Notes: a model not told the origin generated them from the sequence alone. DNA of 64,000 nt from an uncultured Bacteroidales bacterium (GCA_964646255.1 CAZYDI010000006.1:5142-69141), one strand, 5' to 3'; positions 17,757 to 41,245 are shown, counted from the first letter of the stretch. Program-made: numbers and translations.

Positions 17757-18262
17757 GGTTGCCTGGAATAAACAATGACTTCTTTTGCCCCGTTGTCCAA
17801 TAGTTTGGCCTTGGCTTCCGGTACAATATCAGGATTAAGCACCACAACAAATTTATCGTCCATGGCTTTTTCATGAACAATTTCAGCTTTTTTGCCGGGG
17901 TACAACTTCGAGCGCATTGAAAAAAGAAACAGGCTGATGAGCGTAACCAGCAGAATGGTAATCACCAGGGTGACAATAATAAACGAAGGGAAAGCATTGG
18001 AAGGCTTACCTCCGATAATTAAAGGCCAGTCAATAACGGCAGTATAATACAGAAAAGCCAGTGTTGCCAGCATCGAAAAGAAGCCTATAACATACATCAC
18101 GGTAGGCAGACGTGAGCGTCCGGCAACCGTTCGTACAGCTTCATGCACCGGAACAGGGGCATATATTTCTTCGATGGGTATATTGTTGCTTTTCAATGAA
18201 TGAATGGCCTTATCGAAGTCCGACTCGCTCGTGAACACGCCTATATATCGCTGGTTATTCAT
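17753..18262 (-). CDS. actD: ACIII subunit ActD (DUF3341-type)
   Basis: The start is taken at MNNQRYIGVFTSESDFDKAIHSLK (ATG 18262). The protein has a soluble N-domain followed by two TM helices. It overlaps the actC stop by 8 nt. Confidence 0.75.
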   Translation of the reverse strand: MNNQRYIGVFTSESDFDKAIHSLKSNNIPIEEIYAPVPVHEAVRTVAGRSRLPTVMYVIGFFSMLATLAFLYYTAVIDWPLIIGGKPSNAFPSFIIVTLVITILLVTLISLFLFSMRSKLYPGKKAEIVHEKAMDDKFVVVLNPDIVPEAKAKLLDNGAKEVIVYSRQP

Positions 18263-19649: not shown

Positions 19650-22603
19650 CAGGCTTCAGTGTTTCTTACTTTGGTTAAATATCCCACTTTGGGAAGGGTG
19701 TGTAATTCTTCGAGCACATGATAATTGCGCTCGTTTGAATATACCTTGAAAATATTGGTGTGTGAATCGTTCAGATCGCCAAAAGTGAGCGCTTCAGCAG
19801 GACAGGCCTGCACGCAGGCAGGAATAACTTCACCATCCTTTAAGGTACGGTTTTCAAGCTTGGCATTCAGCTTCTTTTCCTGAATACGCTGCACACAGAA
19901 AGTACACTTTTCAACTACACCGCGCTCCCTTACTACAACATCAGGATTCAATACCAGCTTCCCCAGTTCGGAATTTTGGTTATAATCGAACTTTGGATTT
20001 TCCGTGAACTTAAACCAGTTAAACCTTCTCACCTTGTAAGGGCAGTTGTTGATACAGTAACGTGTACCTACGCAGCGGTTATAAGCCATTTGGTTAAGCC
20101 CTTCATTGCTGTGGGTTGTGGCAGCAACCGGACATACATTTTCACAGGGCGCATTATCGCAATGCTGACACATCATCGGTTGAAACAGAACCGATGGTTT
20201 TTCAGGCTCACCGGTATAGTAACGGTCGATCCTTATCCAATGCATAATTCTTCGCTTGATAACCTGTTCCTTGCCAACCACTGCTATATTATTTTCGGCC
20301 TGGCATGCGATGGTACAGGCACCGCATCCGATACAGGAATTAAGGTCGACACCCAAACCCCAGAGGAAACTGTCGTGCCGGTGCTCAGGGTACAGCGTTT
20401 GATGGTGTTTTTCAAACTCTTCATGCATTTCGTTACCTGAATTCGGTTTTTCGCGGTAAGCCTTTAAGGTGGTTTCACGCACAATTTCCCTTCCCTCGAG
20501 GGTATGGTGAGTTTGTGTAAGTGCGAGGGTTGTTCTTTTACCGGTTAATGCAGGTTCATCAACCTTACGGTAATATTGAACGTTGCCGTTTTGCATCACT
20601 GCAAAAGGATACACGTTACTCCCTATATCTTCAGCAACTTTTCCGGCTCCTGTCCTTCCATAGTTCAGGGCTATGGATAATACCCCATATGCCTGTCCCG
20701 GCTGAACAAGGGCTGGTAATTCCATGCCCGCAACAACAATGATATCGCCGGTTTCAATTCCCTTTTCCCTGGCATATTTTGGAGATATGGATGCGTAATT
20801 TTCCCAGGTAACCCGCGATACCGGGTCGGGTAATTCCTGGAGCCACGGATTATTTGAATGGTATGGCGAACTGAGTCCTATGGGAACAGTAAGCTGCAAT
20901 TCAAAAACATCGTCATCGGGTTCATCAATCCTGATGTCGCTAATATTTGTGGCATACCTGATACTGTCCTCAGCCACATCATATTCCATGCAACCCTTTT
21001 GCAACAGTTCAATACGGAATGTTTCAAAATCAGGATATCCCGAAAACCTTGGGTAAAGTTCCTTTTCCCAGTACTGCCTCAGGTATTCTGAAAAATTGAT
21101 TGTACTGCCTGTCCACACCAGCAGGCTATCCTGCATTTGGCGACTATCGAAAATATGGTGAATTCCGGGCTGAGATATGCTGTATATGCCCCTGCGGGGC
21201 TCAAAATCGTTCCACGACTCCAGGAAATGGAAGTCAGGTAAAATATAATCGCAATGTGTCATTGTTTCATTGGGGAATCCCGTAAAGGAAACCTTCAGAT
21301 CTACATAGGACAGAGCAGTGGTCAACCGTTCTGAATCATGGTAATCATATCCGGGATTGGCGTTGTTGAAAAGGACAGCTCCAACCCTGCCGTTTTCCAT
21401 TCGCTCGAGCAATTCTGTAAATTCAAGGTCGGACCCCTGTTTTGTAAGCAGGCGCCTTGAAGTATCGAATGTATGGCCAAAGTTGCCCAGCAAACGGTTG
21501 ATGGCGATAACAATTTTTTGAACATTGGCATCGTTCGAACCCGAAATAACAATCGATTTTCCCCTTTTTGAAAGCAGTTCTGCTGCATATTTTTCAAGCT
21601 GGTAATCAACTGCCGGTGCATTTACGCTGATTTTTTCACCGCTGGTTTTTGAAGCAATAAGGTTGTGTAAAGTGGCAAGAATAACACCTTCCTGTGAAGG
21701 CTTAATTTGTATACGTTCATCAGCATTGCTGCCAGTAAGGGAGAGACCAGCTTCAAACTGAATATGCCTGCTCATGTTTGGCGAGGATTTTTCCACTTTC
21801 CTCTTCTGCACATAAGCCAGGGTAAACTCCACCGGCATTAACCATGTGCCCAGGAAATCAGCGCCAAAGCTTATAATTAGTTCGGCATTGCTAAACAGGG
21901 GATAGGGTATACCTGCATCACCGGTACTTTCGCGGTAGGCATCCGTGAGGCCCGAGTATGAAATTCCGTCGTAATAAACCACACGCAATGTGGGATATTT
22001 AGTCCTGAATCCGGCCAGCAATTTATGGGTGGCAGGGCTAAAAATGGTGGATGAGAGCAGCACTATCTCCCTGCCTTCACGGTTAATTTTTTCAAGTGCT
22101 CCGGTAATCTCTTTATCGGCATCTGCCCAGCTTATAGAGGCATTTTCTTTTCGCGGCCCCGTTATGCGGGCATTGTCGTATAACGATAATACAGAAGCCT
22201 GCACACGCGGTGAAGTTCCCCCACGGGTATAAGGATATAGACTGTTACCTTCGAGTTTAATTGGCCTGCCATCCCGTACCTTAATGACTACCGGACAGAA
22301 TTCCGATCCGTCGTAAAATGTGGATGCATAATGAGAGGCAACTCCCGGTGTAACGTCATCGGTTTGATTGAGAAAAGGTACGGCAAATTGAATGGGCTTT
22401 TTACATGCTGCAAGAATGGCTGAAGAAGCAACACTATAACTCATCAATTTCAGAAAATCACGCCTCGAAGCATTAAGTTTAAAAGGAACACCTTCGATTA
22501 AATTTATTATATTTCCTTTATCACCCTGTTCCTTGCTCTTTTCTTCCTCAGGAACCACAGGGCCACTGACCACTTCTTCGAGGCTACGCCAGTACTTTTT
22601 CAT
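19649..22603 (-). CDS. actB: ACIII subunit ActB (Tat-exported molybdopterin-oxidoreductase-like + 4Fe-4S ferredoxin domains)
   Basis: The 984-aa protein has the Tat motif SRRDFLK. A large MopB-like domain is followed by several Cys clusters (CIGCGACTIAC, CQHCDNAPC, CVGTRYCINNCP, CTFC...CVQACP). Confidence 0.9.
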   Translation of the reverse strand: MKKYWRSLEEVVSGPVVPEEEKSKEQGDKGNIINLIEGVPFKLNASRRDFLKLMSYSVASSAILAACKKPIQFAVPFLNQTDDVTPGVASHYASTFYDGSEFCPVVIKVRDGRPIKLEGNSLYPYTRGGTSPRVQASVLSLYDNARITGPRKENASISWADADKEITGALEKINREGREIVLLSSTIFSPATHKLLAGFRTKYPTLRVVYYDGISYSGLTDAYRESTGDAGIPYPLFSNAELIISFGADFLGTWLMPVEFTLAYVQKRKVEKSSPNMSRHIQFEAGLSLTGSNADERIQIKPSQEGVILATLHNLIASKTSGEKISVNAPAVDYQLEKYAAELLSKRGKSIVISGSNDANVQKIVIAINRLLGNFGHTFDTSRRLLTKQGSDLEFTELLERMENGRVGAVLFNNANPGYDYHDSERLTTALSYVDLKVSFTGFPNETMTHCDYILPDFHFLESWNDFEPRRGIYSISQPGIHHIFDSRQMQDSLLVWTGSTINFSEYLRQYWEKELYPRFSGYPDFETFRIELLQKGCMEYDVAEDSIRYATNISDIRIDEPDDDVFELQLTVPIGLSSPYHSNNPWLQELPDPVSRVTWENYASISPKYAREKGIETGDIIVVAGMELPALVQPGQAYGVLSIALNYGRTGAGKVAEDIGSNVYPFAVMQNGNVQYYRKVDEPALTGKRTTLALTQTHHTLEGREIVRETTLKAYREKPNSGNEMHEEFEKHHQTLYPEHRHDSFLWGLGVDLNSCIGCGACTIACQAENNIAVVGKEQVIKRRIMHWIRIDRYYTGEPEKPSVLFQPMMCQHCDNAPCENVCPVAATTHSNEGLNQMAYNRCVGTRYCINNCPYKVRRFNWFKFTENPKFDYNQNSELGKLVLNPDVVVRERGVVEKCTFCVQRIQEKKLNAKLENRTLKDGEVIPACVQACPAEALTFGDLNDSHTNIFKVYSNERNYHVLEELHTLPKVGYLTKVRNTEA

Positions 22604-22609
22604 ATGAGG

Positions 22610-23737
22610 TTAATAATGACATTTCATACAATCATTTCCGCCAATCTGCTCTACTGATACCTTGCTGATTTTACCGTCACGCAAATCCTTATGCAATTGG
22701 TCATATTTACCATAGAAGCGATTGTCGAACTGAACATTTGTTTCACGATGGCATTGAATACACCATCCCATAGATAAATCATTTACCTGCACAATCTCAT
22801 CCATTGCTGCAACATCGCCGTGGCAAGTCATACAATCAATCTTACCTGCAGTTACATGCTGGGCGTGATTAAAGTAAACATGGTCCGGCAGGTTGTATAC
22901 CTTCACCCATTTAATGGACTGATTGGTTTCCAGGGCATGATAGATTTTTGCGATCTCAAACTTTCCGCTACGGCTTCCTTCCTTAACCAGCACATGGCAA
23001 TTGTTGCATACGTTAGCAGGCGGTATACCCGCAAACTTGCTCTCTTCGGCACCGAAATGGCAATAGAGACAATCGGTTTGATTTTGTCCGGCATGGACTT
23101 TGTGCGAAAATTTTATTGGCTGACCCGGCTGGTAATCGGGAGATCTTCCAAGATCGATGGCTGCATTAACCGTATAGCGTGTTATCAATAACGCTGAGAT
23201 TCCCATGATGGCTATATGCACCAAACGGAACTTTATTTTGCGTGTGATTGCCAGGTCAACAAAAGCAACGATAAAGGCAATGACCAGCAAAGTAAAAATG
23301 ATCCGGTTTGTTCTTAATGGTTTCAGGGGTTGTTCACCTTTAAGGGCCAGATCGTCGAGAAAGCTTTTGATTTGATGAATCTGCTCATCGTTAAGGTTGA
23401 GATTCATGTGAATGCTTTGCATCACCTGGCCCGTAGGGGCAGTGATTGCGGTCTTAAAGGCGTTAAAATCGCTTTTGCTGTACTTCAGCGCAATATCATA
23501 CGCCGAAGGATTCCAGTTGAGTGTATCTACCCGTCCGATATTATGACATGATGCGCAATTGATGGTATTGGTAACTGAAGGTACAAAACCGTGAAAAAGT
23601 CTTTCACCAATTCTTACATCATGAGCGCTATAGGATTCATAATTTCCATTTCCGCTTAGCGTGTCATTATGGGCAAGTATGGATTGATCAAAAACAATAA
23701 ACGAAAAAACCAGGATTGTAAATGGAATTATCTTCAT
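22610..23737 (-). CDS. actA: ACIII multiheme cytochrome c subunit ActA (six CxxCH motifs)
   Basis: The 375-aa protein carries CASCH, CLYCH, CNNCH, CMTCH, CIQCH and CMKCH. One TM helix (IIFTLLVIAFIVAFVDLAI) separates the first heme motif from the other five. Confidence 0.88.
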   Translation of the reverse strand: MKIIPFTILVFSFIVFDQSILAHNDTLSGNGNYESYSAHDVRIGERLFHGFVPSVTNTINCASCHNIGRVDTLNWNPSAYDIALKYSKSDFNAFKTAITAPTGQVMQSIHMNLNLNDEQIHQIKSFLDDLALKGEQPLKPLRTNRIIFTLLVIAFIVAFVDLAITRKIKFRLVHIAIMGISALLITRYTVNAAIDLGRSPDYQPGQPIKFSHKVHAGQNQTDCLYCHFGAEESKFAGIPPANVCNNCHVLVKEGSRSGKFEIAKIYHALETNQSIKWVKVYNLPDHVYFNHAQHVTAGKIDCMTCHGDVAAMDEIVQVNDLSMGWCIQCHRETNVQFDNRFYGKYDQLHKDLRDGKISKVSVEQIGGNDCMKCHY

Positions 23738-29357: not shown

Positions 29358-29469
29358 ACAAAGGTGGGTTACTTTTATTACAGGCAATACGGTTAAATTC
29401 ATTGCCGGAACCAAATTTAAAAAAATCTGCCGGGTTTTTTCATATTCATGACGATGCATTTGTTTTTCG

Positions 29470-29477
29470 TACTTTTG
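29470..29477 (+). promoter_or_regulatory. Candidate -7 promoter box TACTTTTG upstream of the RIC-like gene
   Basis: The sequence matches TAnnTTTG exactly. It ends 16 nt before ATG 29494. Confidence 0.4.
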
Positions 29478-29493
29478 CAGAAACAACTGCACC

Positions 29494-30219
29494 ATGTATA
29501 CTTCCGTTAAAGATTACCTGTCTCCGGATACAGAGTTGTCGGAAATTGTACTGTCTCATCCAAGGACGCTTCTACTGCTGGAACACCTTGAAATATCCGT
29601 GCCTATCCATTCCAAATCGGTGTCGAAAATTTGCAGTGAGAAAAAAATAAGCGAAGGTTTATTTGTTTCGCTGGCCAACCTGTATATGGGCAATCAAATC
29701 ACAGACAGATCGAAAATTAATATCAGCGATTTACCCGTCATCATTCAATTCCTGAAAAAAAGTCATTCTTATTATCACGAAGTATATCCACAAATTCAAG
29801 TATCCATTCAATCGCTGCAACAGGTTAACAATTCTCCCGAAATTACTATGGTTGAGAAGTTTTTCAGGGAATATTTCCTTGAAGTAAAGGAACATCTTGA
29901 CTATGAGGACGAAATCGTATTCCCTTATATTCACACCGTGTATGATTGTTTGAATAATAAAAAGCCTTTTGATCTGGTATCCTCGTATTCCGTTACCGAA
30001 TACAAGGATCATCATAACGATATAGAGGAAAAACTGAACGATTTAATGAACCTGTTGATTAAGTATCTGCCCCAAAAGAATGATATGCAGCAGCGTAGAA
30101 TCCTTTTTATGGCGCTGTCTGATGTGAATTTCGATCTGGGTATTCATTCACGTGTTGAAGAAGAAATCCTGATTCCATTGGTTGAAAAAGCAGAAGATCA
30201 ACTGGCCCGAAGAGCATGA
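29494..30219 (+). CDS. RIC/YtfE/ScdA-like di-iron (hemerythrin-type) protein
   Basis: The 241-aa protein is collinear with E. coli YtfE. Matching segments are LSEIVLSHPRT (N-domain), HSYYHEVYPQI, EHLDYEDEIVFPYI, YKDHHNDIEEKL and IHSRVEEEILIPLV. The YtfE CCGG motif is replaced by VPIH. Confidence 0.75.
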   Translation: MYTSVKDYLSPDTELSEIVLSHPRTLLLLEHLEISVPIHSKSVSKICSEKKISEGLFVSLANLYMGNQITDRSKINISDLPVIIQFLKKSHSYYHEVYPQIQVSIQSLQQVNNSPEITMVEKFFREYFLEVKEHLDYEDEIVFPYIHTVYDCLNNKKPFDLVSSYSVTEYKDHHNDIEEKLNDLMNLLIKYLPQKNDMQQRRILFMALSDVNFDLGIHSRVEEEILIPLVEKAEDQLARRA

Positions 30220-30797
30220 ATAAAGTAAATCATATTATCATTGTTGAGTCGTCTCATTTGCTTTATGAGGGATTGGTGCAGGTAATCTCGAAATCCGGAT
30301 TGAATGCGCATATCAGGCAAACTGCCAGTTTAGGTGATGCGGAAAAGCAAATAAGCATAAAGCCGGATAGCATTGTAATCATTAACCCATCGCTGGTTCA
30401 ATACAATACAAAGGAGTTTCACCACTTAAAAAATGCCTGGGATGGTGTTAAATGGATTGGCCTTGTATATTTGCATTTTGATTACCAGGTACTTGACTTA
30501 TTCGACGGCATTATTAGTATTTCCGACACCCCTTCTGTAATAGTTTCCACCCTTAAAAGGGTTCTTTTATCGGAGTCAAAAATACCCGATGTCACTGAAG
30601 ATGTGCTGAGTGATCGCGAAACGGAAGTGCTGAAGCTATTGGCCAAAGGGATGTCAAATAAGGAAATAGGCGATGAACTGAATATCTCTGTGAACACCGT
30701 TATCACGCACAGGAAAAAAATATCACAGAAAACGGGTATAAAAACGGTTTCAGGCCTGACTATATATGCAGTTGTGAATAAACTTATTATCCTGTAA
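30216..30797 (+). CDS. LuxR/NarL-type regulator with degenerate (pseudo-)receiver domain
   Basis: The C-terminal GerE HTH reads LSDRETEVLKLLAKGMSNKEIGDELNISVNTVITHRKKI. The N-terminal receiver-like fold has ES in place of the DD pair and IINPS in place of the phospho-Asp. Its start overlaps the upstream stop (ATGA). Confidence 0.8.
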   Translation: MNKVNHIIIVESSHLLYEGLVQVISKSGLNAHIRQTASLGDAEKQISIKPDSIVIINPSLVQYNTKEFHHLKNAWDGVKWIGLVYLHFDYQVLDLFDGIISISDTPSVIVSTLKRVLLSESKIPDVTEDVLSDRETEVLKLLAKGMSNKEIGDELNISVNTVITHRKKISQKTGIKTVSGLTIYAVVNKLIIL

Positions 30798-30802
30798 ACC
30801 GT

Positions 30803-30835
30803 GGCTGTTTATCCCCTGTTTTGATGATAACAGCC
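30803..30835 (+). terminator. Weak candidate terminator hairpin after the LuxR gene
   Basis: GGCTGTT(T)AT pairs with ATAACAGCC with one bulge. The downstream T tract is poor. Confidence 0.25.
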
Positions 30836-30880
30836 AAATCTTTCATTCATTTAAGGTATTTCAGCTTAATACTACAACAA

Positions 30881-30888: not shown

Positions 30889-30896
30889 CATTGACT

Positions 30897-32045
30897 ATGA
30901 ACGCAGGAATGAAAAAATCATATACTATTGCCCTGGGCCTTTTCATTGCCTTTTCGGTTAATGCCCAGGATACTTTGAACAGAAGCCCTTTTCTCGCTGA
31001 AGCTTCATACACAGGTGACAATGCCGCCAATCTTGATGGAGGCATAAAAACAGGATATGCCTATTTGGGAATGGTCAACCTCAGCCTGTTTTTTGATTTT
31101 GAAAAAGCAGGACTGTGGAAGGGCGGTTCCGTTTTTATACATGCTGCCAATACACATGGCGCTGTTCCATCGGCAAAAATGTTTGGTGATGCACAGGTGG
31201 CTTCGAATATTGAAGCCGGAAATCATACCTATGTCCAGGAACTATACTACAAACAGACTTTAGGAAAGGTAGAACTCACCATCGGATTGCAGGATCTTAA
31301 TGTTGAATTTGTTAACTCCGGCTATGGCGCATTGTTTCTGAACAGCTCATTTGGAATTATGCCTGTGATTTCGGCAAATTTAGCAGCCCCTATTTTTCCA
31401 CTGACTTCACCCGGGTTCACTACCAGGATAAACATCAATGAAAGATCAACCTGGCTTGTTGCTTTATATGACGGCTGTCCTACCGGTGTTGATGACAATC
31501 CAAACAATCTGAAATGGCAATTCAATTCGGGCGATGGATTACTGGCCATAACAGAGTATCAGCGGACCCTTCAAATTAACCGGCATCAGGGATTATATAA
31601 GATTGGTCTATTTTCGCACAACCATGTTATTCAAAAAGCATTTGGTGAAGCGTTGCCCGATTCACTCAACCGGATCATCGCAGGGGCATATGTCCTGGTC
31701 GACCAGGTTATATGGGAAAGAAATGAAAAGAGCCTGGGAATATTTACGCAAGCGGGCTACAGCCCTTCCGGATACAGTGCAAATGATGTATATGTTGGGA
31801 TGGGATTAAACATGGGTGGATTTTTAAGCAAAAAGAAGAACGATGTATTGGGTTTGGCAGTTGCGCATGCTCACTATACAGGGGGTACAGGCAGCGAAAC
31901 GAGCGTAGAACTTACCTGGTTAAAACCAGTTCATAAGCATATTACCATTCAACCCGATATCCAATACATCATTCAACCTTCAGGCAAGGTTGGTGGGTTA
32001 AGAAATGTTTTTGCAGGAGTATTAAGGATTGCTTTATCATTTTAG
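30897..32045 (+). CDS. OprB-like (carbohydrate-selective-type) outer-membrane porin
   Basis: The protein is about 380 aa with a signal peptide (MKKSYTIALGLFIAFSVNAQ). OprB-family-like segments include GGIKTGYAYLGMVNLSL and LGLAVAHA, and the C-terminus ends ...LRIALSF. ATG 30909 is an alternative start. Confidence 0.65.
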   Translation: MNAGMKKSYTIALGLFIAFSVNAQDTLNRSPFLAEASYTGDNAANLDGGIKTGYAYLGMVNLSLFFDFEKAGLWKGGSVFIHAANTHGAVPSAKMFGDAQVASNIEAGNHTYVQELYYKQTLGKVELTIGLQDLNVEFVNSGYGALFLNSSFGIMPVISANLAAPIFPLTSPGFTTRININERSTWLVALYDGCPTGVDDNPNNLKWQFNSGDGLLAITEYQRTLQINRHQGLYKIGLFSHNHVIQKAFGEALPDSLNRIIAGAYVLVDQVIWERNEKSLGIFTQAGYSPSGYSANDVYVGMGLNMGGFLSKKKNDVLGLAVAHAHYTGGTGSETSVELTWLKPVHKHITIQPDIQYIIQPSGKVGGLRNVFAGVLRIALSF

Positions 32046-32057: not shown

Positions 32058-34523
32058 ATGCAGTTGTCAGATTTAGCGAATAATCAGAAAGCAGTTATTA
32101 CCAGGGTATTGGGACACGGTTCATTTCGTAAACGTATTACCGAAATGGGTTTTGTAAAAGGGAAAGAGGTTACCGTTATAAAGAATGCACCATTGCAGGA
32201 TCCGATCGAATACGAAATAATGGGTTATCATGTATCATTAAGGCGGGCTGAAGCCTCCTTAATTGAAATTGCCATGGATAATTACAACAAAACCGATTTG
32301 TTGGCATATGAAGGCACCATCATTGAGAACCGGCTGAAGATTTCAACGCGCGGGAAAACCAAAACAATCCAGGTGGCGTTGGTGGGAAATCCCAACAGTG
32401 GAAAAACCACCCTTTTCAATCTTGCCTCAGGTTTGCATGAGCGGGTTGGGAACTATGGTGGTGTAACGATAGAAGCCAAGGAGGCAACATTCAGGAAAGA
32501 TAAGTATACCCTTAAAATTACCGACCTCCCGGGAACATATTCCATTACCGAATATACACCGGAAGAACTGTTTGTACGAAAACACATCCTTGAAAACAAA
32601 CCGGATATCGTAATTAATGTAGTTGATGGCTCCAACCTGGAACGCAACCTGCTGCTGACTACACAACTCATCGACATGAACATCAAGGTGATTATTGCCC
32701 TGAATATGTATGATGAAATGCAGGGGCAGGGGATCATGCTTGATCATTTACAACTTGCCAGATTGCTTGGGATACCTGTTGTACCAACTGTTGCTGTTAA
32801 AGGTCAGGGCCTGCAGGAACTGTTGTCCAAAATAATTGAGGTATATGAAGACCGGGATCCGGTAGTAAGGCATATTCACATTAACTATGGCAGCACGATT
32901 GAAGAATCGATAAGCCGGATACAAGGTGAGATAAGAAAAAGCAGGGTGAATCCGATGAGGCTGTCAACGCGCTACCTGGCAATCAAACTGCTCGAAAACG
33001 ATAAAACAACGAAGCAATCCCTATTGGGTCATATCAATTTTGACCGTATAGAGATGATCAGCAATGCTGAAATCCAAAAGCTTGAAAAGGAGTTTCGCGA
33101 AAAGGCCGAAACAACCATTATTGATGCCAAGTATGGTTTTATTGCAGGTGCGTTGGGAGAAACCTGTACACGGGTATCGGGAAAATCAAAGAAGAAGTGG
33201 GTGATTGATGACCTGCTTACCCATAAATACTGGGGATTCCCAATTTTCTTTGCTTTCCTTTGGCTGATGTTTCAGGCTACCTTCAGCCTGGGAAATTACC
33301 CGATGGAATGGATAGATGCCGGTGTAGCATTTGTTGGCGGACATTTAAGCAGTATTATCCCTGACGGTCCGCTTCATGATCTCATCATCGATGGTATCAT
33401 TGGTGGTGTAGGAGGAGTGATCATCTTCCTTCCCAATATTCTTATTCTGTTCTTCTTCATATCGGTTATGGAAGACACCGGGTATATGGCAAGGGTGTCA
33501 TTTATCATGGACAAGTTGATGCACAAAATGGGGCTTCATGGCAAATCATTCATTCCGTTGATTATGGGTTTTGGATGCAATGTTCCTGCTGTGATGGCTA
33601 CACGTACCCTCGAAAACCGGAAGGACAGAATTATCACCATGCTGGTTACTCCTTTCATGTCATGCAGTGCCCGTTTACCGGTTTATGTGCTGATCATTTC
33701 TGCATTTTTTACCCGCCATCAGGGCCTTGTCTTATTTTCGATATACATATTTGGTATTGTGCTGGCCATTGTGGTTGCACTTCTTTTAAAAAGAACGATG
33801 TTTTCAAGGCATGATGTTCCCTTTGTAATGGAATTACCCAAGTACCGCATCCCAACCCTTACCAACTCCTTTACCCATATGTGGTTTAAAGGTTCGCAGT
33901 ACTTACGCAAGATGGGAACGGTCATTTTAATGGCATCCATTCTTATTTGGGCATTAAGCTATTATCCAAGAAAAGTGAAATATAGCCTTGATTATGATGC
34001 TCAAACCGAACTAATTAACAAAACGGTAACCGATGAAAAGGAAAGAACTTTGCAGGTGAATGCCCTGGAACTTAAAAAAGTCTCGGAGCACCAGGAGCAA
34101 TCCTACATTGGCAGGCTAGGGCGTTATATTGAACCTGCCATACAACCCCTTGGTTTCGATTGGAAAATCGGCATCAGCATCATCACTGGTCTTGCAGCAA
34201 AAGAGATTGTTGTAGGTTCAATGGGCGTATTGTACCATGCCGAACTGGAAGCCAATGAACAGTCGGGGAGCCTGATAAAAAACCTTCAGCAGCAGGTTCA
34301 TTCATCAGGAAAACTGGAGGGACAAAAAGTTTTTACACCCCTGGTTGCATTCGGATTTATGCTCTTTGTGCTGATATACTTTCCCTGTGTTGCTGTAATA
34401 GCAGCCATAAAGAAAGAATCAAACTGGAAATATGCATTATTTGCTATGTTTTACACAACAGCCCTGGCATGGCTTGTGGCTTTTATAACCTATCAGGCAG
34501 GTAACCTGATCACTAAAATATAA
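32058..34523 (+). CDS. feoB: Fused FeoA-FeoB ferrous iron transporter
   Basis: The 821-aa protein starts with a FeoA SH3-like domain (VITRVLGHGSFRKRITEMGFVKGKEVTVI). A G-domain (GNPNSGKTTLFN, DLPG) and the polytopic FeoB membrane domain follow. Confidence 0.93.
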   Translation: MQLSDLANNQKAVITRVLGHGSFRKRITEMGFVKGKEVTVIKNAPLQDPIEYEIMGYHVSLRRAEASLIEIAMDNYNKTDLLAYEGTIIENRLKISTRGKTKTIQVALVGNPNSGKTTLFNLASGLHERVGNYGGVTIEAKEATFRKDKYTLKITDLPGTYSITEYTPEELFVRKHILENKPDIVINVVDGSNLERNLLLTTQLIDMNIKVIIALNMYDEMQGQGIMLDHLQLARLLGIPVVPTVAVKGQGLQELLSKIIEVYEDRDPVVRHIHINYGSTIEESISRIQGEIRKSRVNPMRLSTRYLAIKLLENDKTTKQSLLGHINFDRIEMISNAEIQKLEKEFREKAETTIIDAKYGFIAGALGETCTRVSGKSKKKWVIDDLLTHKYWGFPIFFAFLWLMFQATFSLGNYPMEWIDAGVAFVGGHLSSIIPDGPLHDLIIDGIIGGVGGVIIFLPNILILFFFISVMEDTGYMARVSFIMDKLMHKMGLHGKSFIPLIMGFGCNVPAVMATRTLENRKDRIITMLVTPFMSCSARLPVYVLIISAFFTRHQGLVLFSIYIFGIVLAIVVALLLKRTMFSRHDVPFVMELPKYRIPTLTNSFTHMWFKGSQYLRKMGTVILMASILIWALSYYPRKVKYSLDYDAQTELINKTVTDEKERTLQVNALELKKVSEHQEQSYIGRLGRYIEPAIQPLGFDWKIGISIITGLAAKEIVVGSMGVLYHAELEANEQSGSLIKNLQQQVHSSGKLEGQKVFTPLVAFGFMLFVLIYFPCVAVIAAIKKESNWKYALFAMFYTTALAWLVAFITYQAGNLITKI

Positions 34524-34700: not shown

Positions 34701-34720
34701 AAGGAAGTCAGAACATCCCT

Positions 34721-34740
34721 GATAATGATGGTTGAAAATT
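34721..34740 (+). promoter_or_regulatory. Partial Fur-box-like sequence upstream of the TBDR-heme operon promoter
   Basis: In GATAATGATGGTTGAAAATT, the first 9 nt match the 19-bp Fur consensus GATAATGAT. Overall the match is about 11 of 19. It lies 13 nt upstream of the -7 box at 34753. Confidence 0.3.
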
Positions 34741-35198: not shown

Positions 35199-37286
35199 AT
35201 GGAGAAAAACTATTACGTATTTATAGCACTGCTTTTCATATTGCTGTTACCTGCCAAAGGACAAGACCCTCCGCTTGAGGGCACTTCGGATTCTTCTGTT
35301 GTTGTCCTTGAAAACATTGTGGTGAGTGCATCAAAAATGAACCTCAAGGTTAAAGAGATGCCGGCCTCTGTATCTATCGTATCGGCAAAGGCAATAAGGC
35401 TGAATGAAATAGGCAGCCTTCACAGTATCAACACACTGGTCCCCAATTTTGCAATGCCCGAATACGGATCAAAACTAACATCGCCGGTTTACATCAGGGG
35501 TATAGGATCACGCATTAATGCGCCGTCGATAGGGTTATATGTTGATAATGTTCCCTATTTTGATAAATCAACATTCAGTCTTGATTTGTTCGACATTGAG
35601 CACATTGAGGTGCTCAGGGGTCCTCAGGGCACACTTTACGGGCGTAACAGCATGGGTGGGATGATAAACATTACCACCCGGTCGCCCATGGAAAAGCAGG
35701 GTGGACATATAGGAGTTACTTTGGCCACATATGGCAATTACCGGGTTGAAGGTGGTTACTACGGCAAAATTAACAATGATGCAGCCGTTTCATTGTCAGC
35801 ACGATACCAGCACAGGGATGGTTTTTTTACAAACCGGTACCTCGATGAAAAGGTGGATGAACTTAATTCATTTGCCTTGAGAAACAGGCTGGTATATAAG
35901 CTTAGCAGGGAAATTTCACTCGAGAATATTGCCGGATTTGAGTGGAGCAGGCAGGGCGGATACCCGTATGCCATTTATAATGATTCACTGAAAACCCTGG
36001 ATGCTGTGCGCTACAATCAAAAAAGCTCCTATGACCGGAATATGTTCTCCGATGCCTTAATTTTCAAATACGCAAAACCAACATGGGAAATAAGCAACAG
36101 CCTTTCATATCAATATTTCGATGATGTTCAGAGAATCGACCAGGATTTTTCTACCGACTCCTTGTATTTTGCAAAGCAAACACAAAAACAGAAAATGGTT
36201 TCAAACGAGTTGTCGGCCCGGTCAAAGGGAGACGGTACATTTAAATGGGTCCTTGGCGGTTTTGGTTTATTACAATCATTCAGCAACCTGGTGGATGTTG
36301 ATGTATACAACATTAACCAATGGTATGTGAAGGATTACAATACCAACCTCAGGGGATTCGCATTCTTCGGACAATTGTCTGTAAAAATACAGCCAAACCT
36401 TGTGTTAACCGGCGGAATTCGTTATGATTACGAACAATCGGAACTCGAATATGCTTATTACGGTCAACGCGGAATCAATGAACTCCCTGCCATAGACACG
36501 GTTTACCCTGTTTTGAAGGACCATGTAATGCTGCCCAAAGTTGCCCTTACCTACAAGTTTGGGAACACCAACATATATGCATCTTATTCAACAGGATATA
36601 AACCCGGGGGATTTAATTCCACGTCGGATTTGCCCGATAGCCTCTTAAGGTTTAAACACGAGAATAGCCACAACTTTGAAGCCGGTATCAAATCGTCCTT
36701 GTTCGAAAACCTTATATACACCGATTTCGCATTGTTTTTTACCCGCATGGAAAACCAGCAAATTTATCGTACGGCTCCCAATGGCAGGGGATCATACCTT
36801 CATAACTCGGGATTATCTGAAAATACAGGGTTCGAAATATCCGTCCGCAATAAGGAATTTCACGGATTTGAAGCTATGGTAGCTTATGGTTATACGCAAT
36901 CCAAAATAATTAAGTATGTTCAGGACGCTGCCATCAATTTCAATAACCATTATACTCCTTACATTCCCCGCCATACAATGGCAGTGCAGTTAACCAAAAG
37001 GGTGAAATTAAAGAATAATCAAATTGCCAACGAGGCTCTTTTTAACGTAGTATTCCATCAATCGGGAATCACCTATTGGGATTTAAAGAATAACTTCGCT
37101 GAAGAGCGCTATCAGTTGTTTGATGCCAAAATAATATTAACGCGAAATAACATTCAGGTGGATTTTTGGGGCAGGAATTTGCTGAACACCCGGTATAAAT
37201 CTTTCCTTTTTGAAGCCAACAATAAAGTGTATGCCCAAAAGGGCAGGCCTTTTCAGGCAGGGGTGAATGTTACTGTAAAGTTTTAA
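35199..37286 (+). CDS. TonB-dependent receptor (iron-chelate/heme class)
   Basis: The 695-aa protein has a signal peptide and a plug domain (LENIVVSASK TonB-box region, IEVLRGPQGTLYGRNSMGGMINI). A beta-barrel follows, with a terminal ...AGVNVTVKF. Confidence 0.9.
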   Translation: MEKNYYVFIALLFILLLPAKGQDPPLEGTSDSSVVVLENIVVSASKMNLKVKEMPASVSIVSAKAIRLNEIGSLHSINTLVPNFAMPEYGSKLTSPVYIRGIGSRINAPSIGLYVDNVPYFDKSTFSLDLFDIEHIEVLRGPQGTLYGRNSMGGMINITTRSPMEKQGGHIGVTLATYGNYRVEGGYYGKINNDAAVSLSARYQHRDGFFTNRYLDEKVDELNSFALRNRLVYKLSREISLENIAGFEWSRQGGYPYAIYNDSLKTLDAVRYNQKSSYDRNMFSDALIFKYAKPTWEISNSLSYQYFDDVQRIDQDFSTDSLYFAKQTQKQKMVSNELSARSKGDGTFKWVLGGFGLLQSFSNLVDVDVYNINQWYVKDYNTNLRGFAFFGQLSVKIQPNLVLTGGIRYDYEQSELEYAYYGQRGINELPAIDTVYPVLKDHVMLPKVALTYKFGNTNIYASYSTGYKPGGFNSTSDLPDSLLRFKHENSHNFEAGIKSSLFENLIYTDFALFFTRMENQQIYRTAPNGRGSYLHNSGLSENTGFEISVRNKEFHGFEAMVAYGYTQSKIIKYVQDAAINFNNHYTPYIPRHTMAVQLTKRVKLKNNQIANEALFNVVFHQSGITYWDLKNNFAEERYQLFDAKIILTRNNIQVDFWGRNLLNTRYKSFLFEANNKVYAQKGRPFQAGVNVTVKF

Positions 37287-37291
37287 TCAGG

Positions 37292-38494
37292 ATGGAACAA
37301 AAGAATAATCCGGCCAAATTTCCGGTTCTGTTTTTTTTATACATTGCCCAATCGGTACCCATGAGTTTTTTTTCAACGGTGGTGCCGGTAATTATGCGCC
37401 AGGAGCAGTATTCGTTGCAATCGATAGGTTTGCTGCAACTCATTAAATTGCCATGGATTCTTAAATTCCTGTGGGCACCGCTGGTAGACAATTATACCTG
37501 TTCAGGCCGTCAAATTCGCAGGTGGATTATTTTTTCCGAGCTTTTTTATGCTTTCGTTATCCTTAGCGTTGGTTTCTTTAGCCTGCAAACCGATTTTGTC
37601 CTGATCATATGCCTGGTGATTATTGCTTTTATAGCATCCGCAACACAGGATATTGCCACCGATATTTATGCCATTCAACTGTTAAGTCCCACTGAACGTG
37701 GAATAGGCAACAGCTTTCAATCGGCCGGCAGCTTTGTGGGATCACTGTTGGGAACCGGAGTTCTGCTGCTTGCCTATCATTATTTTGGCTGGCATAATAT
37801 GACCTTGCTTCTGGCTTCCTTTGTGGTTTTTGCCATTGTACCCTTATTGCTGCACAAGCCCCGGCTGTCCATCACAAAAAAGAAGGAGCGCTTTACCCTG
37901 TCTGGCATTGGCACCTTTTTTGGTACCAGCGAAAGGAGGAAGCGCTTGCCTGTTTTGTTGTTCTATTATTCGGGCATCATAGGAATTCTGGCAATGATAA
38001 AGCCTTTTATGGTCGACCATGGCTATAATGTTAAACAGATCGGCTTTATGTCAGGTATCATGGGTACATCGGTTGCCGTGCTATCATCGTTTTTGGCCGC
38101 CGGAATAATGAAATTTACAGGGCGCAAAGGCGCGTTGTATCTTTTTGCTTTTATAAACCTGCTGGCTGCGATCTTCTTTTTTAGTATTTCAAAGGGAATA
38201 CCCTCGCTGGCCGAGTTATATGTTGCCATTTGCATGGTATGGGGTGCATATGGCCTGTCTTCGGTTGCTATTTACACCACAAGCATGGACATTGTCCGTA
38301 AAGGACATGAAGGCACCGATTTTACCCTGCAAATTGTCATAACACAATTAAGCGGCCTTTTCATTGCCGTAATGAGTGGTCGTGTAGGTGATAAACTAGG
38401 CTATAGCGGCGTTTTTGGAATAGAAATTATATTGGCAATAATCTCTATTTTGTTCTTACTTTACACTGTTCCGCTTAAAGCTGGCAAAAAATGA
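37292..38494 (+). CDS. MFS transporter, AmpG/RhtX/FptX-like
   Basis: The 400-aa protein has about 12 TM helices. Its N-terminal signature is LFFLYIAQSVPMSFF...LLQLIKLPWILKFLWAPLVDN. It starts 5 nt after the TBDR stop, and its own stop overlaps the hemN start. Confidence 0.8.
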   Translation: MEQKNNPAKFPVLFFLYIAQSVPMSFFSTVVPVIMRQEQYSLQSIGLLQLIKLPWILKFLWAPLVDNYTCSGRQIRRWIIFSELFYAFVILSVGFFSLQTDFVLIICLVIIAFIASATQDIATDIYAIQLLSPTERGIGNSFQSAGSFVGSLLGTGVLLLAYHYFGWHNMTLLLASFVVFAIVPLLLHKPRLSITKKKERFTLSGIGTFFGTSERRKRLPVLLFYYSGIIGILAMIKPFMVDHGYNVKQIGFMSGIMGTSVAVLSSFLAAGIMKFTGRKGALYLFAFINLLAAIFFFSISKGIPSLAELYVAICMVWGAYGLSSVAIYTTSMDIVRKGHEGTDFTLQIVITQLSGLFIAVMSGRVGDKLGYSGVFGIEIILAIISILFLLYTVPLKAGKK

Positions 38495-39867
38495 GCATGC
38501 AAAACCTGATTGAAAAGTATGAGTTAGCTGTGCCCCGGTATACAAGCTATCCTACTGCCAATTATTTTAAGGATGGTTTTCCGGAAGATGAATATATTCA
38601 GCATATCATAGCCTCAAACCAGGTTCGGCAAAACCATCTGGCATTTTATGTGCATATACCGTTTTGCGCAAAAGTATGTTATTACTGCGGATGCAATGCA
38701 TGCATTGCCAGGAGCCCGGGCGAGGTAGGATCCTATATTGAGTGTTTGCTGAAAGAAATAAGCCTTGTTAAAAAGCATATCGATTCAAACCGGAAGATAT
38801 CTCAGATTCATTTTGGAGGAGGCACTCCAAATTCGATTGATGCCGGCCATATTGAGGAAATAATGTCAGCAATTGGCGCCGGGTTATCATACATCGGCAA
38901 TCCTGAAATTGCCATCGAGTGCAATCCTGCCTATCTCGGTTACAGTTATCTTGACAGGTTGCTGAAGCTGGGTTTTAACAGGTTCAGTTTAGGTATACAG
39001 GATTTTGACAATGATGTGCTGAAATTGGTAAACCGCTTGCCATCAGCCATTCCGGTTGCAGAATTGACTAAATACCTAAGATCGGCATCCCCTTTGGTTT
39101 CCGTTAATCTTGATTTTATTTACGGATTACCCGGACAAACCACCGATGGCTTTAGAAAGACCATTTCCGAAGCAATAGAACACAAGCCGGACAGGTTGGT
39201 AACCTTTTCCTATGCGCATGTACCCTGGCTGAAAAAGCACCAACAAATACTCGAAAAGGCCGGATTGCCCGATTCTTCACATAAGGTGGAAATGTTTCTG
39301 ACTGCCCGTGAACTTTTACAGCAATCGGGATATAATGCCATCGGACTGGATCACTATGTACTGCCTGATGATGAGCTTTACACCGCTTTTAACTGCAGGG
39401 AACTACATCGCAATTTTCAGGGTTACTGTACCCGGCGTACCACAGCGCAGGTATATGCCTTTGGTGTTTCAGGTATAAGTCAGCTTGAAAACGCTTATAT
39501 TCAAAATACAAAAGATATCAACAACTATATTCATGCCATTGGTACAGGTAGGTTACCAGTGGAAAAAGGCATCGGGGTGTCTGCCGATCAAATGATCATA
39601 CGCGATGCCATTAATGGCATTATGTGCAATAAATATCTCAACATGAAGGAGGTAAGCGAAAAGCACGGTATCACGCTGTCCGATTTTTACCGGATTACCG
39701 GTTTTGAGCCCCAAAAGCTTTCAGAACCGGTAAGCGACGGTTTGGTGAAAACAGGCAATGACACCATTACCGTCACCGAACAGGGTTCCTTATTTATCCG
39801 TAACATTGCCTCTGCATTTGATCCTGCTTTTGTACCTCGTGTGGGAACCTATTCTAAATCGCTTTAA
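38491..39867 (+). CDS. hemN: Oxygen-independent coproporphyrinogen III oxidase (radical SAM)
   Basis: The 458-aa protein carries YTSYPTANYF, the radical-SAM motif HIPFCAKVCYYCGC and HFGGGTP. Confidence 0.92.
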   Translation: MSMQNLIEKYELAVPRYTSYPTANYFKDGFPEDEYIQHIIASNQVRQNHLAFYVHIPFCAKVCYYCGCNACIARSPGEVGSYIECLLKEISLVKKHIDSNRKISQIHFGGGTPNSIDAGHIEEIMSAIGAGLSYIGNPEIAIECNPAYLGYSYLDRLLKLGFNRFSLGIQDFDNDVLKLVNRLPSAIPVAELTKYLRSASPLVSVNLDFIYGLPGQTTDGFRKTISEAIEHKPDRLVTFSYAHVPWLKKHQQILEKAGLPDSSHKVEMFLTARELLQQSGYNAIGLDHYVLPDDELYTAFNCRELHRNFQGYCTRRTTAQVYAFGVSGISQLENAYIQNTKDINNYIHAIGTGRLPVEKGIGVSADQMIIRDAINGIMCNKYLNMKEVSEKHGITLSDFYRITGFEPQKLSEPVSDGLVKTGNDTITVTEQGSLFIRNIASAFDPAFVPRVGTYSKSL

Positions 39868-39868
39868 T

Positions 39869-41245
39869 GTGGAAACGGTAAAAACTGATATTACAGTCAT
39901 TGGCGGCGGTATTACCGGACTCACCCTTGCTTACTATCTTAAGAGGGCAGGGAAAAAGGTAATTGTGCTTGAAAAAGCAAACCACTCCGGTGGCGTAATC
40001 GGAACCATCACCAGAAATGGGTTTACCTTTGAATCGGGACCCAACACGGGAGTTATCGGAAGTGTTGAACTTGTCGAACTATTTCACCATTTAAAGGGAA
40101 AGGTAGAAATGGATACGGCGAACCCTGAAGCAAAGTATCGCTGGATTCTTAAAAACGGAAAGTGGGAATCATTGCCAACCGGTCTTTTTTCGGCAGTGAA
40201 AACGCCCCTGTTCACTATGGGAGACAAGATAAGGATCCTTGGAGAGCCTTTCCGTAAACCAGGCAGCAATCCGGATGAATCGGTTGCCGGCATGGTCGTA
40301 AGACGGCTCGGTAAGTCTTTTCTCGATTATGCTGTGAATCCTTTTATTTCGGGTGTATATGGAGGTGATCCCGATACATTGATTACACGGTATGCATTGC
40401 CAAAATTGTATAACCTGGAACAAAAATACGGAAGTTTTATAAAGGGCACAATAAAGAAGCACAAGGATCCAAAAACCGAACTGGAAAAGCAGGTTACCCG
40501 TGAAGTATTTTCGGCCAAAGGAGGGTTGAAAAATCTCACTGATGCACTGGCCTCTGAAATTGGTGAAGAAAAAATAATTAAGAACTGCTTAAATGTGCAG
40601 GTTTTTCCGGTTGACAATGGCTTTTTGTGTAAAGGCACTTTGCCATCGGGTGATGGTTTCGGAATAACATCAGGCAGGGTGGTGACCACCGTGAACGGAA
40701 TTGACCTGGCAGGTTTGTTGCCATTTATCAGCGACAATCGTATCCGTTCAATTTCCAATACCCGGTATGCCAAAATTGTTCAGGCAAGTGTTTGCTATTC
40801 CAAATGGGAGGGAAAACAACTGAAAGCATTTGGCGGCCTTGTTCCTGCCAAAGAGAAACGGGAAATTCTTGGCATACTGTTCCCCTCTTCTGTTTTTTCG
40901 GGCAGAGCACCCGAAGGAGGAGCCATACTTTCGGTTTTCATGGGCGGAATAAACAATCCTTCCATATTTGAAAGGGATGATAAATATATTGAATCAATGG
41001 TACTCGCTGAAATCAGTTCAACTTTACATTGTTCCCGGAAACCCGATATGTTTAATATATTCCGTTACAGGCATGCCATTCCTCAGTATGAGATCAGTAC
41101 GGGAGAGCGGTTAAGGGCAATTGCGGGCATTCAGGAGGAATATCCCGGCCTTTTCCTTGCAGGCAATATACGTGACGGGATTGGAATGTCTGACAGGGTA
41201 AAGCAGGCAAGGCAACTGGCCGACAGTTTAACCGGTACTATATGA
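39869..41245 (+). CDS. hemY: Protoporphyrinogen oxidase (HemY-type, FAD-dependent)
   Basis: A Rossmann motif, DITVIGGGITGLTLAYYLKRAGKKVIVLE, lies directly after a GTG start at 39869. The C-terminus reads LFLAGNIRDGIGMSDRV. The ATG extension at 39758 overlaps hemN and places 37 aa ahead of the FAD motif. Confidence 0.85.
   Translation: METVKTDITVIGGGITGLTLAYYLKRAGKKVIVLEKANHSGGVIGTITRNGFTFESGPNTGVIGSVELVELFHHLKGKVEMDTANPEAKYRWILKNGKWESLPTGLFSAVKTPLFTMGDKIRILGEPFRKPGSNPDESVAGMVVRRLGKSFLDYAVNPFISGVYGGDPDTLITRYALPKLYNLEQKYGSFIKGTIKKHKDPKTELEKQVTREVFSAKGGLKNLTDALASEIGEEKIIKNCLNVQVFPVDNGFLCKGTLPSGDGFGITSGRVVTTVNGIDLAGLLPFISDNRIRSISNTRYAKIVQASVCYSKWEGKQLKAFGGLVPAKEKREILGILFPSSVFSGRAPEGGAILSVFMGGINNPSIFERDDKYIESMVLAEISSTLHCSRKPDMFNIFRYRHAIPQYEISTGERLRAIAGIQEEYPGLFLAGNIRDGIGMSDRVKQARQLADSLTGTI

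Follow-up and report, generated by a model that had tools for sequence, protein, structure and literature searches.

How does a LuxR-type regulator receive its signal when its receiver domain carries no aspartate to be phosphorylated? This question is raised by two adjacent genes, here called HEM and REG, in a 64,000-nucleotide (nt) stretch of DNA from an uncultured Bacteroidales bacterium (GCA_964646255.1 CAZYDI010000006.1:5142-69141; the whole stretch is referred to as the window, and positions are counted from its first letter). HEM codes for a hemerythrin-like protein and REG for the regulator. The initial annotation of the locus had proposed that the two form a pair sensing nitric oxide (NO), O2 or iron, in which a di-iron protein resembling the repair-of-iron-centres (RIC) proteins controls the regulator by contact and not by phosphorylation. 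From the comparative analysis described below we consider it probable, though by no means certain, that HEM and REG, as a module of the PG1236-CdhR family, act as sensor and regulator without the help of a kinase and control iron uptake.

Relationship to the PG1236-CdhR operon

In Porphyromonas gingivalis, PG1236 is a hemerythrin-like 27.5-kDa protein and PG1237 is CdhR, a 22-kDa LuxR-family regulator with a GerE domain at residues 131-186 (PMC11018363). A P. gingivalis-type locus (L083) was found in metagenome contigs by means of the published PG1237 primer. Its two open reading frames (ORFs), which overlap by 4 nt, begin with MTTHHIK and MNIITLK and end with LDEIAH, matching the published primers. 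In BLASTP comparisons HEM was 30% identical to PG1236 over 237 amino acids (aa; E 4e-33), and REG was 36% identical to CdhR over 151 aa (E 2e-23). The two operons also resemble each other in the order of a hemerythrin-like gene followed by a LuxR gene, in the 4-nt overlap and in the lengths of the products (236 and 199 aa in P. gingivalis, 241 and 193 aa here). CdhR has the aspartate-less receiver signature 'VEP...MNP', PG1236 has all six di-iron ligands, and iron or heme acquisition is a theme in both systems. Judged from homology, gene order and overlap, HEM-REG is an environmental member of the known PG1236-CdhR/BT0519-BT0520 operon family and not a new kind of system or an unrecognised one.

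The genomic surroundings of the two operons differ. The known CdhR targets hmuYR, mfa1, luxS, PG0495 and PG1549 are unlinked to the operon. In the 5-kb P. gingivalis locus a pseudouridine synthase gene lies beside cdhR, neither feoAB nor a porin gene is present, and the candidate DNA element described below was not found. Here and in most environmental Bacteroidales, in contrast, the pair lies directly upstream of oprB-feoAB and is accompanied by a phased candidate operator.

Published data on the family bear on its function. Iron depletion raises expression of the operon, in P. gingivalis about 7-fold and in Bacteroides thetaiotaomicron (BT0519-BT0520) 16-20-fold; in the latter the counterpart is among the genes reported to be regulated both by iron limitation and in colitis. 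With NO, the induction of the operon was 11.9-fold and 7.7-fold. CdhR activates hmuYR and represses mfa1. Expression of hmuY was down 9.7-fold in a cdhR deletion mutant, and it was down 15-fold (control) and 64-fold (NO) in a PG1236 deletion mutant in which cdhR was still transcribed. The mechanism of CdhR has been called unclear, as CdhR was not shown to bind iron (PMC10434189). In the literature on PG1236-CdhR that we found, no Asp-less receiver, no operator and no fusions beyond that of Prevotella intermedia are described.

HEM has the fold and the metal site of RIC proteins

HEM matched the Pfam Hemerythrin profile with 33.3 bits (curated cut-off 25.3), and its residues 16-228 were collinear with positions 2-214 of the 216 positions of the RIC model TIGR03652. 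The scores remained far from those of RIC equivalogs: 53.1 bits were obtained with TIGR03652, whose equivalog cut-off is 204.7, and 20 bits with NF008221 (cut-off 254). When the HEM family profile was compared with the YtfE chains in the PDB, an E value of 0.47 only was reached. An AlphaFold model of HEM made with 88 homologues (predicted local distance difference test, pLDDT, 88.9; predicted template modelling score, pTM, 0.88) consisted of a small N-terminal helical domain and a four-helix bundle. All 11 top PDB matches of this model in Foldseek were RIC proteins; about 225 columns were aligned with YtfE, and the target-normalised template modelling score with Staphylococcus aureus ScdA/RIC was 0.75-0.77. 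The collinearity with YtfE and ScdA that had been read from the sequence was thus borne out, both by the nearly end-to-end profile alignment and by the modelled fold.

A scan of one genome per species gave 345 relatives of HEM, and 80 loci were retained. The di-iron ligands of YtfE are H84, H129, H160 and H204 together with the bridging E133 and E208 (PMC9052748). Taken in sequence order (H84, H129, E133, H160, H204, E208) they align to H91, H134, E138, H174, H218 and E222 of HEM. The four His/Glu ligand segments quoted in the initial annotation are all present, and the six ligands were invariant in 80/80 family members, including PG1236 of P. gingivalis and one fusion protein.

The di-iron site of YtfE receives its electrons from the vicinal pair Cys30-Cys31 (PMC9052748). 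At the corresponding positions Cys-Cys was absent from all 80 family members, and a CC anywhere within the first 75 residues was found in one of the 80. By hand alignment (YtfE P16 = HEM P23) the two cysteines map to about P37-I38 of HEM, and this mapping may be one residue off the segment 'VPIH'. Of the earlier statement that VPIH replaces the CCGG segment, the loss of the Cys pair therefore stands, and the exact position is approximate.

Because the Cys pair is missing and the equivalog score is not reached, HEM is RIC-like in fold and metal site and is not a RIC equivalog or orthologue. The assignment as RIC/YtfE-like holds for the fold and the ligands and fails for the Cys pair and the equivalog score; HEM is without the part of RIC that is linked to catalysis. 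With YtfE, ScdA, DnrN and NorA it shares the two-domain fold and the six ligands. It differs from them in its low identity (16-18%), in the absence of Cys30-Cys31 and in its obligate link to a transcription factor, either as partner or by fusion. DnrN and NorA have been proposed to modulate the signal that reaches the NO-responsive regulators DNR and NorR.

REG contains a conserved pseudo-receiver

The profile searches suggested for the two proteins detected, besides the Hemerythrin domain of HEM, a Pfam GerE domain at residues 129-184 of REG (61.9 bits). Response_reg did not match REG even at E<=1, and it matched weakly in only 3 of 19 REG homologues. The precomputed annotation lists PF27685.1 for two REG homologues (P0137 and P0195); this may be a family newly built for the N-terminal domain. 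An AlphaFold2 model of REG (91 homologues, pLDDT 87.7) had the (beta-alpha)5 order of a receiver followed by a four-helix helix-turn-helix (HTH) domain, with strands beta1 at residues 6-10, beta3 at 53-56, beta4 at 79-84 and beta5 at 98-101. The best Foldseek matches were full-length regulators of the NarL/FixJ class, namely StyR, LiaR, VraR, VpsT, ChrA, RcsB and NarL (E 2e-8 to 6e-7).

In the profile alignment with PDB entry 2qxy, N57 at the C-terminal end of beta3 was paired with the phospho-acceptor Asp and E11 with the first acidic residue; E11-S12 stands in place of the acidic pair. The near-invariant Y85 occupies the receiver Thr/Ser position, and after beta5 the Lys is absent, S103-D104-T105 being found there. 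The pairing with 2qxy and the AlphaFold2 model thus confirmed what had been noted from the sequence, i.e. E-S at the acidic pair and Asn at the acceptor position, as well as the suspected loss of the Lys.

These replacements are a property of the family. Among the 91 REG homologues position 57 was Asn in 80, Ser in 10 and Cys in one, and never Asp; P58 was invariant, position 11 was Glu in 85 and Asp in six, and position 12 was never acidic. In the 79 copies from species-representative genomes plus CdhR, position 57 was Asn in 75, Ser in three and Asp in one. The last one is the REG of L035 (6686-7285), the sole family member with an acceptor Asp (LVIVDPILV); it has E-P at the acidic pair. The L035 locus has neither a porin gene nor feoAB.

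The most conserved receiver residues (E11, S13, N57, P58, Q62, Y85 and D104) ring the former active site. Since these residues are the most conserved part of the domain, they suggest that this face of the receiver is still functional. The alignments support the view that REG would not be phosphorylatable in the usual way and that its N-terminal domain is a conserved aspartate-less pseudo-receiver.

The reported lack of a histidine kinase (HK) gene in the window was borne out: none was found when a HisKA/HATPase_c kinase was used as phmmer query against the stop-to-stop ORFs of at least 80 aa (E<=1), and Pfam detected no kinase domain in any ORF of at least 300 aa. A conserved kinase partner beside the orthologues was also looked for in the 80 loci. 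HK-like genes were present near the pair in three loci only (L005, L017 and L054), whose REGs keep N or S at position 57. In two of these, both from Prolixibacteraceae metagenome-assembled genomes, REG is separated from the porin gene by a HisKA/HATPase_c kinase gene (L017, 7462-8433; L054, 7499-8887), and Asn57 is kept.

HEM and REG are conserved as a pair, and relatives of HEM are fused to a LuxR HTH

The 80 loci came from Prolixibacteraceae, Paludibacteraceae, Lentimicrobiaceae, Rikenellaceae, Salinivirgaceae, Ignavibacteria and others. REG followed HEM directly and on the same strand in 79 of the 80 species genomes; in the one exception the contig stops 6 nt past HEM. Three look-ups that were begun from REG homologues found HEM directly upstream in all three cases. 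One of them was the cultured Prolixibacter denitrificans, in which the order HEM-REG-OprB-FeoAB-FeoB_associated is identical to that of the window.

The overlap of the HEM stop and the REG start as ATGA was confirmed from the ORF coordinates. The distance from the HEM stop to the REG start was -4 nt in 41 of 78 measured loci, with a full range of -49 to +9 nt, so that in the cross-genome comparison both the pairing and, in these 41 loci, the overlap were found to be kept. Overlapping stop and start codons would favour co-translation of HEM and REG in matched amounts.

A full three-domain fusion of HEM and REG (about 430 aa) was not found among the best 120 matches to a concatenated query. A shorter type of fusion was common. 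P0242 (322 aa) consists of a HEM domain, a short linker and a GerE HTH of the family type, without a receiver. Its HTH contains the family-specific sequence …NTVITHRKNI..KTGIKS..GLTIYA…, and its gene (locus L081) lies immediately upstream of genes for a FeoB_associated protein and feoAB. With P0242 as phmmer query over 1.84 billion cluster representatives, 143 proteins were found at E<=1e-30. The best 149 representatives of 50%-identity clusters that were retrieved comprised 71 HEM+HTH proteins, 78 HEM-only proteins and none with a receiver, so the fusion count is given as at least 71 protein clusters. Two of the HEM+HTH fusions were confirmed by Pfam, and each di-iron ligand position was kept in 49-57 of the 57 full-length fusions. 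A fused gene in P. intermedia has been described previously (PMC10434189). Because so many relatives join the hemerythrin domain straight to a LuxR HTH, the fusions are a strong argument, and the strongest computational evidence, that the di-iron domain would serve as the input module of a LuxR-type output.

A candidate operator downstream of REG

A 20-22-nt element with the family consensus TTTCATCATTTTTAGGGATTTC (TCATCATTTnnRGGGATT) was enriched 3' of REG. The position weight matrix (PWM) was built from 26 sites including that of the window, so that the top rank of the latter site within the window (Table 1) is partly circular. In two-fold cross-validation, 42 of 74 loci had a match of at least 12 bits on the coding strand within 200 nt after REG, and the cross-validated density was 3.3 matches/kb after REG as compared with 0.043/kb elsewhere in the loci. 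Three loci outside the training set also contained the element (L081, 24.4 bits; L087, 20.6 bits; L088, 19.0 and 14.7 bits).

The position of the element relative to the promoter was nearly fixed. From the last T of GGGATT to the downstream TAnnTTTG box the distance was exactly 21 nt in 34 of 39 loci and 20 nt in three more. The element spans about -34 to -53, with its centre at about -43, and lies over the -33 element, which is the geometry of LuxR-type class II activation and makes it a candidate operator. In P. denitrificans the spacing to the -7 box is kept by a variant, ATCCTA-N6-TAGGTAT. In four loci (L006, L017, L018 and L054) REG and the porin gene have another gene between them, and there the best match sits ahead of the porin gene; in L017 and L054 this places the conserved element 3' of the kinase gene.

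Perfect palindromes (AATCCCCAnTAnTGGGGATT) were found in L019 and L036. Because of these, the element may be regarded as an inverted repeat whose left arm is degenerate. The NarL heptamer is TACCCCT, which the half-site ATCCCCA of the element resembles. Upstream of HEM, PWM matches occurred in L019 and L036 only, both of which have divergent genes. In these Ignavibacteria-type loci the palindrome AATCCCCA(n)TA(n)TGGGGATT and a second site (L019, 1585-1650; L036, 5837-5902) lie between HEM and a divergent gene pair coding for a DUF6662 outer-membrane protein and a small cytochrome-c-like protein.

Several other candidates were rejected. The classical Fur box (GATAATGATAATCATTATC) showed no enrichment over shuffles either upstream of HEM or downstream of REG, so that the element is not an E. 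coli-type Fur box, a consensus that is not Bacteroidetes-specific. The strict palindrome ATC[AC][CT]C-N5-8-G[GA][GT]GAT had only five matches downstream, and the asymmetric PWM described the element better. PWM matches inside feoB (33219-33240 in the window; also in L001, L004, L017 and L049) were explained by coding conservation of the THKYWGFP motif, which illustrates that coding conservation can pass for a regulatory motif. For a PWM match at 34712-34733 on the minus strand no gene lies in the right orientation.

The exact TAnnTTTG box that had been ascribed to the HEM-REG operon itself was confirmed (TACTTTTG, Table 1). On the minus strand a Nudix ORF seemingly overlaps the start of HEM. 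As its family match begins only at residue 53, its true start is most likely an internal Met, which leaves 29358-29493 as a divergent intergenic region. Neither the candidate REG operator nor a classical Fur box was found in this region, and k-mer enrichment over the HEM upstream regions gave no convincing shared (autoregulatory) motif.

Genes downstream of the pair

Downstream context was counted in the 57 loci having more than 5.2 kb of downstream flank. The pair was followed by porin and FeoAB genes in 23 of them, by FeoAB alone in 10 and by a porin alone in five (38/57 with either or both); in total, a porin gene followed REG in 28 loci and FeoAB followed the pair in 33. Several of the other loci had TonB-dependent receptors, imelysin with a di-haem oxidoreductase, or an FMN-binding protein. 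A gene for the FeoB-associated protein was also present 3' of feoAB in L081, L086 and L088. Upstream of the pair, the window contains genes for Fur, a ferritin-like protein and a 1-Cys peroxiredoxin. Its location between fur-bfr-prx and porin-feoAB was correctly described, as was the presence of a qNOR gene in the window. The qNOR gene lies 26 kb from the pair and outside the conserved neighbourhood of the 80 loci. Of the proposed NO/O2/iron sensing, the iron-acquisition context was therefore upheld and the NO context was not. The gene neighbourhoods (OprB-FeoAB, TonB-dependent receptors, imelysin) tie the output to iron acquisition and not to NO detoxification.

The coordinates of the features are collected in Table 1. 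The true start of the porin gene is probably the ATG at 30897 or 30909. The hairpin directly 3' of REG may be a terminator-like structure, a distal operator, or both.

Table 1. Features of the HEM-REG locus (positions in the window unless given as residues)
Feature	Position	Strand	Basis or remark
HEM ORF (241 aa)	29494..30219	+	ORF read from sequence
HEM N-terminal ScdA_N-like helical domain, without Cys pair	residues ~15-64		model
HEM four-helix bundle	residues 77-240		model
ATGA stop/start overlap of HEM and REG	30216..30219	+	sequence read
REG ORF (193 aa)	30216..30797	+	ORF read from sequence
REG receiver-like (pseudo-receiver) domain, residues 1-122	30216..30581	+	AlphaFold2 secondary structure, Foldseek, PDB 2qxy alignment, column counts
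REG GerE/LuxR-type HTH, residues 129-193, then stop codon	30600..30797	+	Pfam GerE
Divergent intergenic region with HEM-REG operon promoter	29358..29493	+	sequence read
-7 box (Bacteroidetes type) of HEM-REG promoter, TACTTTTG	29470-29477	+	16 nt ahead of HEM start codon
Hairpin directly 3' of REG stop, holding palindrome ATCCCCTGTTTTGATGAT (30811-30828)	30802..30836	+	RNA fold -13 kcal/mol, z = -3.9; palindrome search
Candidate REG operator TTTCATTCATTTAAGGTATTTC	30841..30862	+	PWM 19.3 bits, best in the 64-kb window; over -33 region of porin/feoAB promoter
-7 box TACTTTTG of porin-feoAB promoter	30871..30878	+	sequence read
OprB-family porin, likely first target	30891..32045	+	Pfam OprB, E 2.3e-43
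FeoA-FeoB fusion ferrous-iron transporter, likely target	32058..34523	+	Pfam FeoA, FeoB_N, FeoB_Cyto, Gate, FeoB_C
FeoB-associated Cys-rich small membrane protein, 57 aa	34527..34700	+	Pfam PF12669, E 1.8e-4, below cut-off

Other genes in the window

A heme/iron cluster lies 3' of feoAB (35199-45104). It codes for a TonB-dependent receptor (35199-37286), a major facilitator superfamily (MFS) transporter, a radical S-adenosylmethionine (SAM) protein (38491-39867), a HemY-like amine oxidase (39758-41245), ferrochelatase (41242-42252) and a KatG-type catalase-peroxidase (42795-45104). At none of the genes of this cluster was the candidate operator found in a convincing position. The qNOR gene (NorB with a cytochrome c-like domain, 1648-3915) adjoins one for an Old-Yellow-Enzyme-type flavin oxidoreductase (574-1635), the two forming a block at 574-3915 on the minus strand. 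A ResB/CcsA cytochrome c assembly fusion is encoded at 7679-10834. An aerobic respiration block on the minus strand (11693-23737) contains genes for COX2 with a cytochrome c domain, COX1 and an alternative-complex-III-like set, the latter made up of an NrfD-like protein, a 984-aa Fe-S protein and a multihaem cytochrome. The respiration genes suggest that the host is a facultatively aerobic or microaerobic member of the Bacteroidales. Near the other end of the window, at 61206-63689 on the minus strand, an 826-aa sulfur-trafficking fusion combines pyridine-nucleotide disulphide oxidoreductase, rhodanese, TusA and DsrE domains. An Rfam scan of the window detected no RNA family.

Discussion

The opening question can be answered with a model in which the signal would reach REG through HEM. 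HEM, with its RIC fold and complete di-iron site and without the electron-relay Cys pair, would be the sensory subunit. REG would be the DNA-binding subunit; its Asp-less receiver, instead of being a kinase substrate, would act as a docking or allosteric domain for HEM. The activity of REG would depend on the di-iron site, i.e. on its metal occupancy (iron supply) and/or its oxidation or nitrosylation by O2 or NO. Active REG would bind TCATCATTTnnRGGGATT at about -43 and switch on the genes for the OprB porin, FeoAB and the FeoB-associated protein. The original suggestion of a regulator that works without phosphorylation and takes its input from a di-iron protein is supported by the conserved loss of the Asp, by the lack of a conserved kinase, by the conserved coupling of the two genes and by the HEM-HTH fusions.

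The adjacent ferrous-iron uptake genes are most likely controlled by the pair. The signal is most economically taken to be iron supply, as the predicted target genes code for iron importers and iron depletion induces the orthologous operons; NO or O2 acting at the di-iron site would give the same read-out, which fits the NO data. The low hmuY expression of the PG1236 mutant speaks more for HEM as a positive co-factor of REG than for an anti-activator, with the reservation about polarity given below.

Three other explanations were considered. The first, which we regard as unlikely, is that HEM is a RIC-type enzyme or iron handler (Fe-S repair, nitrite reduction or iron donation) and a mere member of the regulon, and that REG senses through its pseudo-receiver by way of tyrosine phosphorylation or a small ligand. 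The RIC fold and the complete di-iron site of HEM would be in keeping with such a role. In P. gingivalis the cdhR mutant is NO-sensitive and the PG1236 mutant is not, nor is the latter sensitive to H2O2. CdhR has moreover been reported to be under Ptk1/Php1 tyrosine phosphorylation control, and REG has the near-invariant Y85 at the Thr/Ser position. A co-regulated enzyme is, however, hard to square with at least 71 clusters of HEM-HTH fusions that have no receiver. The loss of the YtfE electron-relay Cys pair throughout the family, the near-obligate pairing (79/80 genomes) and the fact that deletion of PG1236 lowers hmuY as strongly as deletion of cdhR also speak against it.

A second explanation, rather improbable in our judgement, concerns the output. 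The DNA element could be a site of Fur or of another iron regulator and REG could act on distant targets as CdhR does (hmuY, mfa1, luxS), in which case the adjacency to feoAB would merely reflect a shared iron theme. The left half of the element (ATCATCAT) is AT-rich and loosely Fur-box-like, a fur gene is found in the window 1.5 kb upstream, cdhR is not linked to its known targets, and the P. gingivalis locus lacks a recognisable copy of the element over its 5 kb. Against this, the classical Fur box was not enriched, and the GGGATT/ATCCCC half-sites and the palindromes of L019 and L036 look NarL/LuxR-like and not Fur-like. The element also tracks REG where the downstream genes differ (L067 and L080) and is present in the fusion locus L081.

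The third explanation, that a kinase encoded elsewhere phosphorylates REG at a non-canonical residue in a conventional two-component system and that HEM has no part in signalling, is very improbable: REG does have response-regulator architecture, L017 and L054 contain kinase genes, L005 has an HK-like gene nearby and L035 has the acceptor Asp, but N or S occupies the acceptor position in 78 of 79 genomes, the receiver has lost the acidic pair and the Lys as well, the REGs beside the three kinases keep N or S, the window has no kinase, and in L017 and L054 the element lies past the kinase gene, ahead of the porin gene.

The NO phenotypes of the two mutants and the reported tyrosine phosphorylation of CdhR weigh against the kinase-independent HEM-REG module as well, and so do several further points. 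Binding of CdhR to the hmuY promoter was not reproduced by Boutrin et al., and the phenotype of the PG1236 deletion may be an artefact of the insertion, caused by polarity or by an effect on translational coupling. No strong PWM match was present in 32 of the 74 loci, and 19 of the 57 loci have neither a porin gene nor feoAB downstream. The element is assigned to REG only by its linkage in cis and its resemblance to NarL-type sites, and its position over -33 would be compatible with repression too. Finally, the promoter of the operon itself has no recognisable shared motif that would account for the iron response of the operon.

A sensor protein that controls a receiver-domain regulator by direct contact, without a kinase, has precedents in AmiC-AmiR and NasS-NasT. 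These resemble the proposed HEM-REG module in having a separate soluble sensor, adjacent genes, an unphosphorylated receiver-like domain and no kinase. They differ in that their sensors are periplasmic-binding-protein types for amides or nitrate and their output is an ANTAR antiterminator and not a LuxR HTH; for HEM-REG, moreover, the contact is proposed. VpsT, one of the best structural matches of REG, likewise combines a receiver fold with a GerE HTH and works without phosphotransfer. It keeps the Asp and is controlled by cyclic di-GMP, whereas REG has a dedicated partner protein and no Asp. Sensors with a hemerythrin domain are also known: FBXL5 of mammals (iron/O2) and the bacterial proteins Bhr-DGC and DcrH have a ubiquitin ligase, a diguanylate cyclase and chemotaxis, respectively, as output. 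As proposed for HEM, a di-iron four-helix bundle in them senses iron supply and/or O2 and drives a linked output. Theirs are canonical hemerythrin domains and not a RIC-type bundle with a ScdA_N-like cap.

A broader interpretation is offered more tentatively, as a possibility that falls somewhat short of being probable. Bacteroidota and Ignavibacteriota may share a widespread iron-starvation circuit that works by activation and independently of Fur, with the RIC-like protein as its sensor for iron (and/or O2/NO). Whether the di-iron site is occupied, or which redox state it is in, would be read via the Asp-less receiver in the two-gene form, or via the fused LuxR HTH in the one-gene form. Through a class II operator at about -43 the circuit would switch on FeoAB, OprB and TonB-dependent receptors, and HmuYR in P. 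gingivalis.

As a regulator of virulence and heme uptake in P. gingivalis, CdhR has been studied extensively, and the comparative data offer a testable mechanism for regulators of its type. What the present analysis adds to the known family is its breadth (79/80 pairs), the fusions, the iron-uptake context and a candidate operator with fixed promoter phasing. P. denitrificans provides a culturable organism with the same five-gene arrangement. If the proposal is true, Bacteroidota would have a second iron-sensing system beside Fur, in which the RIC fold would be used as a sensor and not as an enzyme, and the receiver domain would be a docking module for a metalloprotein.

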